Below, piece after piece: positions 4,510-63,416 of a stretch of DNA of 64,000 nt. How positions within the stretch are numbered: the first letter of the stretch is position 1; each line of letters opens with the position of its first letter. The DNA comes from Eledone cirrhosa (lineage: Eukaryota), in NCBI GenBank assembly GCA_964016885.1, contig OZ024747.1, positions 26,784,001-26,848,000 on the forward strand, read 5' to 3'. Made by a program: the position numbers and the translations under genes. Below the pieces are notes generated by a model that was not told the DNA's origin, made no database searches, and was given only the letters and a program-made list of their open reading frames with translations.

Positions 4510-4564
4510 ACTGCTATATATATTTCGGTGACAGCCATCTTTGGCTGTGACCTCTTCAGGCAGT
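4510..4564 (-). ncRNA. Type I hammerhead ribozyme (Penelope pLTR-type)
   Basis: Minus strand reads ACTGC-CTGAAGA-GGTCACAGCCA AAGA TGGCTGTCACC-GAAA-TATATA-TA-GCAGT, then AATAAA. Core is intact, stem I is 5 bp and stem III is palindromic. Confidence 0.85.
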
Positions 4565-4646
4565 CCGAATTAGTGTGGTAGAGACGAGTACACATGTTGT
4601 TGAGGTGTATAACTTTGTCAATACTCTGATATGCCCAGTTCCTGGT

Positions 4647-4709
4647 TGGGTTGTTATTTCACTGAGGAACTGGAATATGATTCCAGTTCCTCAGTGAAAT
4701 AACAACCCA
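4647..4709. repeat. Perfect 30-bp hairpin at the 5' end of the HHR-bearing element
   Basis: TGGGTTGTTATTTCACTGAGGAACTGGAAT-ATG-ATTCCAGTTCCTCAGTGAAATAACAACCCA. Confidence 0.9.
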
Positions 4710-5499
4710 TATATATTATATTTTAATATTAATAACTCCGGAAAATTATTTTTCGTAGAGTGCTTCCAATCATTCTTTGACATAATCATTGAATATCGTT
4801 TAACACTTTAATATATATATATATATATATATATATATATACGTACGTGTGTGAATTTGTTCATATGTATATATGTGTATGTGTGTGTGTTTGTCTGTCT
4901 GTGTGTTACTGTCAGTGACCAGGTTCTAAGCAGGTCGACGAAAATTTTGACAACAATAAATAAATGTTCAATGAATTTAACTGCTTTTGTATGTTTTATG
5001 AATGGTTAAAATGATTCTTCGACGATGTAATTGTATTACTTTCAACACACCGTTTCAGATAAAGTCATTAGCCAGACAAGTACAACTGTAGTTAAAGTGA
5101 CTTTTCCATGCTGTATTTGGTTTAGTTTCAAATCCCTTCTATATTTGTATATCTCTATAGTAAATAAAAGTACAAGTGTTTTTAATTACCCAAAGAATAT
5201 GTTGTTACATTCAACAAAGTGGGTATAAACAAATCTAATTACTTTCAAGTTACTGTATATCTAACTCAAGGGAGGTAAGGCTACAAACAGGTTTCCTCCC
5301 TTCAATTGAAAAATGTAAAAAGCAGTAGTCTTATTGCAGATTTCAAATCTCGCTGAAGCCAACTTTGTCTTTTATTCTCCCAAGGATCGATAACATAAAG
5401 AGCCAGTCAAAAATTGGGGTCAATTTCATCCCTTGTGTCTAAATTACAAACCATTATTCTAGAACGTAAAAATTAAAACAATATGATTATTAGGTTTAG

Positions 5500-5890
5500 T
5501 CAGGGAAAGAAATGTAGGGACATTGTCGAGTTCAAGCTAGCTGATGAGCAGTGTGATTTTCGCCCCGGAAACAGCACAGCTGCTTTGAGAAATCGTGTAA
5601 AAATTCTCAAGAGGTGTTTTCTTGCTTCGCAGACCTCAAAAAGGCATACGACCGTGTTCCACGAGATTTGTAGTGTAAGGTTCTGCAGGAGTAGTGGGTC
5701 GCTGGACAGCTTCTTGTCTCTATATGGTACTAAATCGAAATCATTCAATGTGTGAGTCGGACTCTGCGAAGGGTGCGTATTGTCACCTCTCCCGTTCATA
5801 ATCTTCATGAACAGGATTGACATGCGCAGCCAGGTTGGGAGTGGTATCACGACTGGCGAGTGTATGGTCAGTATGTTGGAATTTGCAGAC
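5500..5890 (+). mobile_element. Degenerate RTE-clade LINE, RT fragment
   Basis: Frameshifted translation gives KLADEQCDFRPGNST, FADLKKAYDRVPR and GLCEGCVLSPLPF (RT motifs). Confidence 0.8.
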
Positions 5891-6569
5891 ATAGTATTAA
5901 GGAAGAAAAGAAGAAACAGGAGGTCGTGATGGTTTACACTTTGGAGTAAAGTTAAAGTATAAAATGTAGTCTGAAGAGAAGACGTGAAGTTAAGGTGCTG
6001 GACTGCAGGACACAAGGCATTGCGATGTTTGATTTAAAGGATCTAACAGGCTGAAAAACCACGTATATGTTCTTCCTTGGCTCCAAATAACTGGCTTATT
6101 TTCATCATAGTAATAAAACTCGGTGCATTCGGCAACAGTGCCAGGTTTGGTCCCCGAACCATGTCCTCACTACTATCGGGGCGGAGTTAGCCACCCGCGG
6201 GAGTGAGAGTCCTGCGAGTTGGAACGGCTATTACAACGTGACTCTCTCGATATCCTCCATTCTTTCCCTTGAGGTGGCTTACGCCTGGAATTCTGCGCGC
6301 CAAAGAGCGTTCTTCCACATTATCCGGGCATGTATCACTGTGGTAGCGATGGTGTAGGTTACTGATATTTATGATTATACACTTTCATTGTAGATATATG
6401 ACAGGGTGTTGGTTATGCTATACAAGAACAGAGGATGATCAAGGCTAGAATATCTATGTTCATAGGTCTGCTCAATTAGATCTGACACAAGATTTGGTGT
6501 AATAATACTTGCCGGTATAATTGCACCCGGTGTAGAACTAAAATACGTTCCCCCTAATTTATTGCCCTC

Positions 6570-6860
6570 ACGTTTATCAGCTAGTTTGTACTCAACAATC
6601 TCCCTGCATTTCTTTGCCAGACACTTAGCATAGTCATTACAGGGGAGGCTTAACAAAGAGAGCCCTCTGAATTGGAACAACCTCTGTTGGCTCCTTTTTT
6701 GAAATTGGGATTTTCAGTCCCGATTGCCATTGCTTAGATGCCTTTCCAGAGATTCAGGCGAATCAGCCAGAAATACCTTCTCTATTTAAGGCTTTTAACA
6801 TCTCGGGCCAGATTTCATCATCCCCAGCTTAAACTGCTCTTGTGACCTCGGCCTCTGAGA
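6570..6860 (-). mobile_element. Inverted RTE LINE fragment (start of RT)
   Basis: FRGLSLLSLPCNDYAKCLAKKCREIVEYKLAD matches the YRGISLLS region and overlaps in homology with the 5500 fragment. Confidence 0.7.
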
Positions 6861-6929
6861 GATTAGTCACCGCTCCCAGACGACATGATGTTACTTAACT
6901 CGACAGGTTACCTCCGTCTTGCACTCGAT

Positions 6930-61115: not shown

Positions 61116-61536
61116 TGTATATATATATGTATGTATATATATATATGTATGTATATATATATGTATGTATATATATTTGTATGTATATATATATATGTAT
61201 GTATATATATTTGTATGTATATATATATATGTATGTATATATATTTGTATGTATATATATATATATATGTATGTATATATATTTGTATGTATATATATAT
61301 ATATATCTATATATATATATATATGTATGTATATATATATCTATATATCTATATATATATATATATGTATGTATATATATATATATATATATATATATGT
61401 ATGTATGTAGTAGGGTAAACATTGATGCAATTCAATTCAATCACTCAACGTACTTTTTCCACATAGGAGTGACGGAGAAAATATTGAATAAGGAAAAGCG
61501 AAGTAGTTTCAGATGTTCAAGTCCTTTAATAATAAT

Positions 61537-61610
61537 GCTGTGATATATATTTCAATGACGACACTGGCCACACTGTTCTGTGTGCGAGTGTCGTGACATC
61601 ATCAGACAGC
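61537..61610 (-). ncRNA. Type I hammerhead ribozyme (left arm of fold-back element 61494-61915)
   Basis: Reverse complement of 61799-61872 with one stem II difference. Confidence 0.8.
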
Positions 61611-61798
61611 TGTCAGCGAATTTCGTTGAAATCTGCGGTGCTAATGGTCAACTTCCTTCGGACATGCGCTTGCGCAGACCGGTGGGAGTGAATTGGTACT
61701 CAGAAGGGAATGGGTGAAAAACCCAAAAGCACGAACTTCATCCGTTCCCATGTCGATTCAATTTGGATTGCCTCGGAAACAACCTTATTATGTAACAA

Positions 61799-61872
61799 GC
61801 TGTCTGATGATGTCATGACACTCGCACACAGAACAGTGTGGCCAGTGTCGTCATTGAAATATATATCACAGC
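61799..61872 (+). ncRNA. Type I hammerhead ribozyme (right arm)
   Basis: GCTGT-CTGATGA-TGTCATGACACT..CACAC AGAACA GTGTG..AGTGTCGTCATT-GAAA-TATATA-TC-ACAGC. Confidence 0.85.
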
Positions 61873-61964
61873 ATTATTATTAAAGGACTTGAACATCTGA
61901 AACTACTTCGCTTTTACTTATTCTATATATGTATGTATATATATATATGTATATGTATATATAT

Positions 61965-62530
61965 GTCAGGTCACCAGTTGGTGCTACTGGTAAATGTACA
62001 ACCTGTCTCATGGTCGGGTCGTTGGTGACTAAACTGACAACCCCACCAAGGTTTCTTGGTGAGGAGGGTGACTTTGGACATCCTGCAGGACTAAAAACAA
62101 AACCTGTCAAAGGGCAAAGAGCTCTTAAGACTCAATGGCCATCCAAAATCACCGGGAGAGATGACCCCTTAGCCTTTGTCAACGCAGAATTCTAGGAGAA
62201 GGAAAACTCTGATATAACACCTGCAACCCTGATGGTAAATATCATCTTGGTTAAGAGAGTGGGACTGGCTTTGTGCAGTGCCTTTGCTCACTATAAAAGC
62301 TTCACGGCACAGGCATTGCTTTATATCTGGAGATATCTCTGCACTTGTCGTCACATGGTACCATGGGCCTAGCACTATGTGTCAATAATTGTCACAGTTG
62401 TAGTGTTCGTACCAGAGTTTTCAAGTCGCTGGCTGGACTAAAAAGTCACACTCGTTTAGCGCATCGGTAGGAGTTCTCCTACATGGATATAAAGTAGTTG
62501 CCATACTCGAAAAGGAGTTGGCAGCCACCA
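61965..62530 (+). mobile_element. Bipartite RTE derivative, copy 3
   Basis: Direct repeat with two small internal deletions. Confidence 0.8.
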
Positions 62531-63380
62531 TATGTATATATATGTATGTATGTATATATATATATGTATATGTATATATATATGTATATATATATATATG
62601 TATATGTATATATATATGTATATATATAAATATATATGAACAATCGTCTGGTTGTGGAACCAACCAACCAACCGGAAATTTATAAATTCTTATATTTATA
62701 AATTTAATTTATAATAAATTGAAGTGAAAGCAACTGGTGCGTGTGTTTCTTATTGGCAACATGACCCTCCCAAAGCATAACAACATCGGATCAATACACG
62801 TTTTTAGATAAAGAATCTTGCTAAACAAATTCAAAAACGAAATATATATATATATATATTATATATATTATATATATATATATGTATATATATATATGTA
62901 TATATATATATACATATATATATATATGTATATATATGTATATATATATGTATATGTATATGTATATGTATATGTATATATGTATATATATATATGTATA
63001 TATATATATAGAGAGAGAGATGTATGTGTGTGTGTGTACATATGTATATACGGTGGTCGAGAGATTTGGATATTTGTTCTGTTCTGCATTTAAATCCTGC
63101 CGAAGTTCACTTTGCCCTTCATCCTTTCGGAGTCGATAAAGAAAGTACTAACATAGTGCTGATGCAGTTCTCGCTCCTTCTTGCTATCATATCCTCGATG
63201 TTCAGTCGGATTGGGGGAAGGAGGATCGAGAGAGTGTCCGTGTCTAAAGTCATTCTCGATTGTGTGTGAGCGACAGCTGTAGTTTAAGTATGTAAAATGT
63301 AAACTGAAAACAACACAGCGAAACGATACAGTAGAACCTAGACATGTAGTAGTTTAACGCTTGATATAGTAGGAAAACAG

Positions 63381-63416
63381 TCTTAACGTTTCGGGCGTTA
63401 GTCTTTCCTCGGAAGA
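63381..63416 (-). ncRNA. Degenerate hammerhead-like motif
   Basis: TCTT-CCGAGGA-AAGAC TAAC GCCC-GAAA-CG-TT-AAGA; U4C core change and a damaged stem II. Confidence 0.4.

Follow-up and report, generated by a model that had tools for sequence, protein, structure and literature searches.

In a 64,000-nt stretch of the Eledone cirrhosa genome (assembly GCA_964016885.1, contig OZ024747.1, positions 26,784,001–26,848,000 of the forward strand; hereafter, “the window”), eleven motifs are predicted to be type I hammerhead ribozymes, most of them with the conserved core and three stems in type I order. Here, we describe these motifs and the mobile elements that carry them. It is probable that the hammerheads sit in the terminal repeats of at least three coding Penelope-like elements (PLEs) and in three non-coding units likely copied by the same kind of enzyme, with copies ending at (TA)n tracts. 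A broader proposition, which we put forward tentatively and rate at slightly below an even chance, is that this octopod has the densest hammerhead load that we found reported (~1 per 10 kb, or ~2.6 × 10⁵), that a PLE protein dimer obeys a near-obligate rule of two UA sites, that retrozymes (non-coding, ribozyme-bearing tandem units) are copied too, and that one element ships its own target. The association of ribozymes, PLEs, and (TA)n is already known; what is described here are probable new members of the Hydra clade, a Neptune-like PLE, and putative new animal retrozymes. Less known are the scale of the system, the pairing of short and long tails, and a target microsatellite carried by the element itself.

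Hammerhead motifs in the window and across the genome

The eleven motifs fall into seven families, which we label A to G:

4510–4564 (−): hammerhead B; type I, stem II of 3 bp, a C.C mismatch and 7 bp, palindromic stem III; descriptor match
21880–21957 (−): hammerhead C; long stem III, with the junction at stem II a base shorter than in the commoner form of the family
39918–39968 (−): hammerhead A, copy damaged by A9G and by a mismatch in stem I
46314–46364 (+): hammerhead A, intact copy; U.U at the base of stem II; descriptor match
46609–46646 (+): hammerhead D, first copy; U3/A8 core, a stem III pair broken
48330–48367 (+): hammerhead D, second copy; U3/A8 core; descriptor match
53912–53956 and 54379–54423 (−): hammerheads E, two copies, one per tandem unit; descriptor matches
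61537–61610 (−) and 61799–61872 (+): hammerheads F, two copies in a head-to-head pair; descriptor matches
63381–63416 (−): hammerhead G; minimal and decayed, with U4C and a broken stem II

A sequence-only reading of the window had listed the same eleven motifs, and all are present. We searched with a type I descriptor consisting of the core, a stem I of at least 4 bp, a stem II of at least 3 bp (or U.U plus 2 bp), and the closing pair of stem III. With a strict core, the window has six matches, whereas 200 block-wise dinucleotide shuffles average 0.005 and never exceed 1; with a relaxed core, it has eight, compared with an average of 0.05 and at most 2. Motif density is thus higher than in shuffled sequence, a comparison that the sequence-only reading had proposed. 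The relaxed matches comprise seven of the eleven motifs and a weak one at 16690, which we left out of the counts. Hence, the statement that every motif pairs correctly holds for seven; the motifs at 39918, 46609, 63381, and 21880 deviate. In Rfam, only the 53912/54379 pair matched a hammerhead model (HH9; 38.6 bits, under the gathering threshold of 52) among the best 150 of 510 matches in an E-value scan dominated by TA-driven miRNA matches, and a search of four full-length loci at the gathering threshold gave no match.

The division into about seven families stands: the bodies of B, C, D, E, and F have no common match longer than 22 nt. Family A was compared only with C, E, and F, giving short TA/TG-like matches, and G with none. 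The B ribozyme (4510) and the F ribozymes (61537/61799) are built on the same stem II design.

We examined the conservation of stem II in 44 distinct sequences collected with a pattern that asks for no pairing. Positions 1–3 and 5–10 pair in 31–43 of the 44, with exchanges between G-C and A-U, while position 4 is paired in none and is C.C or C.U in 41. Paired cells number 359, compared with a maximum of 308 in 1,000 shuffles, a figure inflated by the kinship of the sequences. A U3/A8 swap is fixed in family D. Together, the stem II exchanges and the fixed swap show selection on the predicted fold. Stem III is palindromic in 15 of 18 multi-hit clusters, a feature of hammerheads that act as dimers (PMC4209133). 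We had considered the U3/A8 core and the U.U base of stem II as possible novelties and dropped both, as each variant is already published.

The sequence-only reading implied a local cluster in the window. To place it in the 3.0-Gb genome, we drew sixty 10-kb “blind” samples at round coordinates on 22 large contigs. These contain 62 motifs, representing 34 independent events in 26 loci (13 motifs lie in one array, and one was counted twice); 20 shuffles gave 0–2 per 600 kb. The resulting density, 6.6 per 64 kb compared with 8 in the window, rules out a hot spot. One tight pattern matches exactly at 83,654 places genome-wide and nowhere when reversed; the samples had predicted 99,928 matches. 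Scaling gives about 2.6 × 10⁵ motifs genome-wide, with an uncalibrated bootstrap range of 1.8–4.7 × 10⁵. The largest count we found reported is that for the 28-Gb axolotl genome, up to 120,000 (bioRxiv 10.64898/2026.07.22.740005); the comparison is rough, because descriptors differ between studies. In a first test for open reading frames (ORFs) at matches to the tight pattern, 34 of 40 had no sense ORF upstream. In a hand-picked rather than random set of widely spaced pairs of the same pattern, 12 of 14 enclose Hydra-type ORF sequence.

Coding and non-coding hosts

The sequence-only reading had linked the hammerheads to PLEs, and the hosts bear this out: the motifs sit in PLEs and in non-coding tandem units, with 5′ inversions and with 3′ ends at (TA)n. 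The inverted or tandem duplications it described are likewise found at the family level. It overlooked the ORF of the autonomous family A, which lies within the window, between two motifs. Features of the coding families in the window are as follows:

39840–41727 (−): PLE-A arm in inverted orientation, made up of the long tail (+89), the ribozyme, a unique stretch of 600 nt, and 1.15 kb of internal microsatellite
41742–43187 (+): PLE-A ORF, 5′-truncated, Hydra clade; reverse transcriptase (YRDD), CxCX5C linker, C-terminal GIY-YIG-type nuclease with CxxC and CxH
43361–45846 (+): TA/TG/CA microsatellite block in the PLE-A 3′ untranslated region, 2.5 kb
45847–46377 (+): PLE-A 3′ terminal repeat; short tail (+21), end at (TA)n
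4344–4709 (−): family B, another Hydra-clade PLE, represented by its 3′ end with a long tail (about +155); small fold-back at 4647–4709
46573–46802 (+): family D, first 3′ end of a Neptune-like PLE; long tail (+140)
47881–48443 (+): family D, second 3′ end; short tail (+75)
22870–22967 (−): family D tail fragment without ribozyme, between TA tracts, antisense in an intron of the gene EED

Full-length PLE-A loci have the order ribozyme, ORF, microsatellite, 600 nt, ribozyme in seven of seven cases, with motif A ~180 nt upstream of the start codon and repeated at the far end. Given this layout, 39840–46377 is a single insertion of PLE-A, a young element, consisting of an inverted arm, a truncated ORF, and a 3′ end. 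The ORF has 89 scored copies at 95–100% identity, many with an open 758-codon frame, and full copies encode 713 amino acids. The protein has RWR, DKT, CxCX5C, CxxC, and CxH, all features of the Hydra clade. A Pfam search of the window missed the 5′-truncated ORF, and for the PLE-A protein Pfam gave GIY-YIG at E 0.067 only and no match to RVT_1; therefore, the assignment of reverse transcriptase and nuclease rests on motifs (YRDD, YIG). Motif B lies downstream of a Hydra ORF (RWK, DKT, CxCX5C) in eight of eight loci, and motif D lies downstream of an ORF with GLKF, DKG, and a CX4CxxC linker in ten of ten. The family D protein matches RVT_1 (E 1.3e-6) and GIY-YIG (E 2.9e-6), with the nuclease C-terminal.

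By protein motifs, ribozyme, and insertion at (TA)n, families A and B are putatively placed among the Hydra-clade PLEs, which are defined as hammerhead-bearing and (TA)n-inserting and have a member in Octopus bimaculoides, Hydra-1_Obim (Craig et al. 2021, PMC8557442). The likeness to published Hydra elements includes a single ORF with RWK/DKT/CxCX5C and a C-terminal nuclease, a type I hammerhead near the 3′ end, a frequent U.U at the base of stem II, an inverted 5′ copy, and a tail at one end. PLE-A monomers measure 4.8–6.4 kb, long because of the internal microsatellite, and the B monomer 4.26 kb. Both exceed the 2.1–2.7 kb of complete elements listed for the clade, for which a length of <3 kb is typical but not defining (PMC8557442). 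Compared by eye, A and B are families other than Hydra-1_Obim, with a different protein start and ribozyme. We found no survey of octopus hammerheads in the open-access literature beyond the Hydra-1_Obim entry; in a repeat annotation of O. vulgaris, 31 PLE families are listed as recently active, and ribozymes go unmentioned in the main text (PMC13282606). Family D is, on its motifs, a probable Neptune-like PLE. It resembles the Neptune and Nematis elements (Cervera and De la Pena 2014, PMC4209133) in its GxKF, DKG, CX2-5CxxC linker, and upstream frame, and in its minimal hammerhead with a U3-A8 core and palindromic stem III. We also considered the Naiad clade, which targets (TA)n in Octopus; it is ruled out by the C-terminal nuclease, DKT or DKG, and hammerheads of A, B, and D.

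Two observations on coding elements stand apart. In PLE-A, a 45-codon open frame runs from the predicted cleavage site into the start codon (L181:1917–2054 (+); window 39840–39920 (−)). The predicted cleavage site overlaps a stop codon. This open frame may be chance or may bear on translation of cut RNA. Beside examined loci (L192:4860–7486; L200:1724–4867), there are ORFs of two further PLE-like families that are unrelated to A, B, and D.

The remaining hosts are non-coding units and one old repeat:

21616–21992 (−): family C, incomplete copy of a retrozyme-like, non-coding tandem unit of 625 nt; flanked by TA at either end, antisense in an EED intron
53616–54702 (−): family E, a 468-nt non-coding tandem repeat present in 1.85 units, together with an inverted arm (54471–54702); tail long at the left end and short at the right
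61408–61928 (no strand): family F, two arms from a non-coding unit of 1.27 kb, joined head to head; left end with the long tail, right end with the short one
63290–63600 (−): family G, an old dispersed repeat; bounds approximate

In families C, E, and F, units follow one another head to tail and each has a single type I hammerhead, as in non-LTR (long terminal repeat) retrozymes. Elsewhere in the genome, the 625-nt C unit is found 16 times in one locus (L207) and the 468-nt E unit seven times, plus two inverted, in another (L208); the F unit of 1,271 nt is observed only as a partial tandem. The longest stop-free frames span 72–88 codons, and there is no match to PLE proteins. Copies of all three families are dispersed over many chromosomes, and the best 40 candidates are 93–100% identical. 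Family C also forms long arrays (G000:C2:376629126 onwards, >45 kb; G000:C3:161512528–161543631, ~31 kb), each with one form of the ribozyme junction; genome-wide, the commoner form has 249 exact matches and the one-base-short form 66. C- and E-like contigs occur in a public sequencing run that also holds a spliced EED contig, although neither strand, nor molecule ends, nor circularity can be read from contigs.

Families C and E resemble the non-LTR retrozymes described from animals (Cervera and De la Pena 2020, PMC7229834; Li, Clavereau and Pollet 2026, bioRxiv 10.64898/2026.07.22.740005) in being low-GC, non-coding tandem repeats that bear a single type I hammerhead per unit and range from monomers to long arrays. 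A PLE origin, or mobilisation by PLEs, has been proposed for retrozymes in the same papers. Family F, at 1.27 kb, is longer than the 51–972 bp reported for animal retrozymes. Family G is much older: its 40 best copies, the window copy aside, are 74–83% identical, and several hold a cleaner minimal hammerhead than the window copy does.

Further retrozyme-like families of ~420 and ~310 nt occur at L268:270–9600, L212:3640–4700, and L215, and are weakly related to E (69–73% over 60–120 nt). At L268, a TA tract recurs within the array, as if a unit pair plus TA had been amplified at the DNA level. A 615-nt tandem (2.2 units; L183, about 2950–4314), in which no hammerhead was detected, is nested in the internal microsatellite of a PLE-A copy.

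Insertion ends, paired tails, and TA arrays

We mapped 223 3′ ends, of which 190 adjoin (TA)5 or longer; a further 57 sites ran into the next unit or an ORF, and two could not be aligned. TA is found at the junction in 30 of 33 cases for A and 42 of 56 for B. Each family has one or two fixed end points, 20–300 nt downstream of the predicted cleavage site and nearly all at a TA or TATA of the element. Relative to the predicted cut, ends cluster at +21 and +89 (A), +56 and +155 (B), +258 (C), +75 and +140 (D), +227–233 and +301 (E), and +56 and +131 (F). At 10 of these 12 hot spots, the TA microhomology is at least 2 nt, against 0.19 expected by chance. All 25 elements picked by their ORF, a choice free of selection for tails, hold a ribozyme at the 3′ end.

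At the 5′ end, an inverted arm is present at 20 of 24 resolved loci for B, 11 of 19 for D, 21 of 23 for E, and 16 of 25 for F (16 of the 125 loci surveyed were dropped as duplicates or because they ran off the locus). Family C has none at 18 loci, 15 of which have TA on the 5′ side; it is also the only family with a single end point. Head-to-head insertions combine one short and one long tail in 75 of 81 cases, including 9 of 10 for E and 10 of 10 for F, and in 11 of 11 cases in the blind samples; the A, E, and F insertions of the window obey the same rule. This pairing, non-coding units included, suggests twin priming at two sites on the RNA. In the literature, the PLE tail is described as “often” or “optionally” present at one end, and we found no count of short/long pairing in the literature searched. 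The two ends differ by 65–100 nt here and by 30–40 nt in Hydra elements (PMC8557442), and the pairing here is near-obligate. The covered parts of the retrozyme papers do not describe PLE footprints of the kind seen in E and F, i.e., fixed ends anchored at TA, inversions, and paired tails.

Terminal repeats are more alike within an element than between elements: they differ by 0.8% compared with 2.5% for A, and by 0% compared with 2.1% for D, and the nearest partner of a repeat lies in the same locus in 14 of 17 cases for the two families together. Thus, both repeats of A and D are rebuilt from one copy in each cycle, which fits a circular template, or a jump on one RNA. For E, a single circular template was considered and is not supported, as the units of one insertion are no closer to one another than to other loci; E leaves the choice undecided.

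The window's long (TA)n arrays lie beside element ends:

38523–39834 (no strand): (TA)n array adjoining the family A insertion on its long-tail side, directly after a 200-N assembly gap
46796–47556 (no strand): (TA)n array after the first D copy
48440–49350 (no strand): (TA)n array after the second D copy
54701–58822 (no strand): 4.1-kb (TA)n array after the E inverted arm

Nearly all hosts had been described as bounded by (TA)n. That is true of five families; at 4510, the end meets no more than a short run of TA, and 63381 lacks even that. The sequence-only reading had also proposed a genome-wide test of the association. In the blind samples, 42 of 62 motifs (30 of 49 when one array is excluded) are followed by (TA)6 or longer in the next 150 nt downstream, compared with 11.7% of random positions and 11 of 61 upstream of motifs.

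Whether the elements help to spread (TA)n, as had also been suggested, is a separate matter, and support for it is weak. Only 79 of 769 arrays in the blind samples (3,115 of 34,797 bases) adjoin an intact motif. Decayed copies went uncounted, so this share is a lower bound. Nor are arrays beside motifs longer than the rest (median 26 compared with 22, mean 39 compared with 46). In favor of spreading, PLE-A carries an internal TA/TG block of 1.8–3.4 kb in seven full-length copies. In the window, 1,216 of the 7,792 bases in TA tracts belong to this block, and the element's own block is duplicated in the inverted arm (45 mismatches in 1,117). One internal block has taken a nested insertion. Flanks of the block were found in none of the 60 blind samples. 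On balance, most TA arrays look like targets rather than products.

The window has other repeats and genes. A generic repeat search was dominated by TA arrays. Three copies of a LINE-like (long interspersed nuclear element) 3′ end (58838–59437, 60543–61111, and 61969–62526 (+)) are each followed by a TA-rich tract, making such ends a possible second source of TA arrays. A frameshifted LINE with endonuclease and reverse transcriptase (Pfam) lies at 49633–53378 (+) and is presumably of the RTE type. Decayed coding pieces at 29288–33396 (−), two of which were tested and had no Pfam match, bear what we take to be a resemblance to a non-LTR element with a restriction-like endonuclease. Imperfect palindromes occur at 2178–2368, 28181–28515, and 34025–34111; none of the three has a hammerhead core. 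An (ATTAT)n-type array of 2.7 kb and the 200-N gap lie at 34330–37028, 37847–38201, and 38323–38522, and array lengths near the gap are uncertain. The Polycomb gene EED has 12 coding segments at 8166–24710 (+); one exon is 95% identical to its Octopus bimaculoides counterpart, which places the host among the octopods. Of the motifs, only C falls within the mapped coding span, in an intron and on the strand opposite to the gene. Lastly, Rfam matches and a reading of the alignments identify three near-identical tRNA genes with a CAG anticodon (406–489 (+), 2886–2969 (−), and 3972–4055 (−)) and one with a GTT anticodon (1018–1091 (−)).

Possible mechanism, alternatives, and implications

We propose that the GIY-YIG nuclease of the element would cut both strands of a (TA)n tract. 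Each DNA end would then anneal to UA at one of two fixed internal sites of the RNA and prime reverse transcription. This would amount to twin priming, likely by a protein dimer, and joining of the two cDNAs head to head would give a fold-back with unequal tails. Synthesis would cross the ribozyme junction on a template that may be an uncut tandem transcript or a transcript cut and re-ligated into a circle, and copying across the junction would let a single RNA copy restore both terminal repeats. Cleavage of tandem RNA to monomers is the predicted task of the ribozymes, which would mostly act as dimers formed via the palindromic stem III. Families C, E, and F would be copied in trans. PLE-A would also copy the 1.8–3.4 kb TA/TG microsatellite of its 3′ untranslated region and so plant new landing sites.

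The closest experimental parallel is PAc, a Poseidon element of Anolis (Frangieh et al. 2024, PMC11167929). PAc has two internal start sites for reverse transcription downstream of the ribozyme, both strands of its AT-rich targets are cut and extended, and a dimer is predicted. Its start sites are neither homologous to the cut DNA nor specific to one strand, whereas here 10 of 12 hot spots have TA microhomology and the two ends use different sites.

That difference is one of several points that weigh against our proposal. PAc ribozyme mutants insert in vitro as well as the wild type does (PMC11167929). Among the hot spots, F +56 lacks microhomology and A +21 has 1 nt in the reference used. Most junction loci were chosen by similarity to the tailed copies of the window, so that copies ending at the cleavage site would be missed. 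The units of family E differ by 0.96% within an insertion and by 1.08% from other loci, and the nearest unit lies in the same locus for only 7 of 32. C, E, and F have short matches only to the coding PLEs A, B, and D, none of which is a coding partner with common sequence. Spread to dispersed loci is seen for the one-base-short ribozyme C, and family D is placed by motifs rather than by a tree.

The mutant data, the E units, and the spread of the short C ribozyme all lend themselves to a different account, in which the elements are the same but cleavage is irrelevant to their transposition: the template would be an uncut tandem transcript, and the ribozymes would act elsewhere (in RNA turnover or translation) or simply ride along. 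Every mapped 3′ end lies downstream of the predicted cut, and therefore the template spans the cut site, as this account expects. It is hard to square with the compensatory changes across families and the U3/A8 swap fixed in D, which show selection on the fold, or with the renewal of A and D terminal repeats from one copy in each cycle. We judge it unlikely, while regarding it as the strongest competitor. A motif origin by chance folding or assembly error in AT-rich, repetitive DNA would have in its favor the 30% GC of the window, the gap beside one array, and the possibility that fold-backs are misassembled. It is refuted by the shuffles, for the window and for the blind samples, and by the reversed pattern; moreover, family E with the same loose TA ends appears in contigs of an independently assembled public run. 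The probability that we attach to it is negligible.

Two other alternatives concern what the elements do rather than whether they exist. The elements might build the long (TA)n arrays, e.g., by telomerase-like repeated copying of a short UA template before the body. The largest arrays of the window adjoin element ends, PLE reverse transcriptases are sisters to telomerase (PMC8557442), and PLE-A carries a microsatellite block. This is improbable given how few blind-sample arrays adjoin an intact motif, their unremarkable length, and the absence of PLE-A block flanks from all 60 samples. A little less probable again is that C, E, and F owe their mobility to ordinary LINEs or their spread to satellite amplification of DNA, having only a TA neighborhood in common with the PLEs. 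The lack of a sequence match to the three coding PLEs, the RTE-type LINE pieces with TA-rich ends in the window, and the long arrays of C without inversions would all agree with it. By contrast, E and F show the PLE footprint (fixed ends past the ribozyme, 5′ inversions, and short and long tails), and copies of all three families are near-identical and dispersed over many chromosomes.

Two questions left open by the cited papers become testable in this genome with an existing in vitro assay: how the tandem and inverted ends of PLEs form, and what moves animal retrozymes. The genome offers many young copies, ORFs, a clear rule for the pairing of tails, and, in six families, exact start sites. 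Cephalopods are known for heavy RNA editing, and ~10⁵ self-complementary fold-backs with ribozyme cores could cut transcripts or pair with them. Finally, if PLE-A does ship kilobases of its own target, its insertions would beget insertions.

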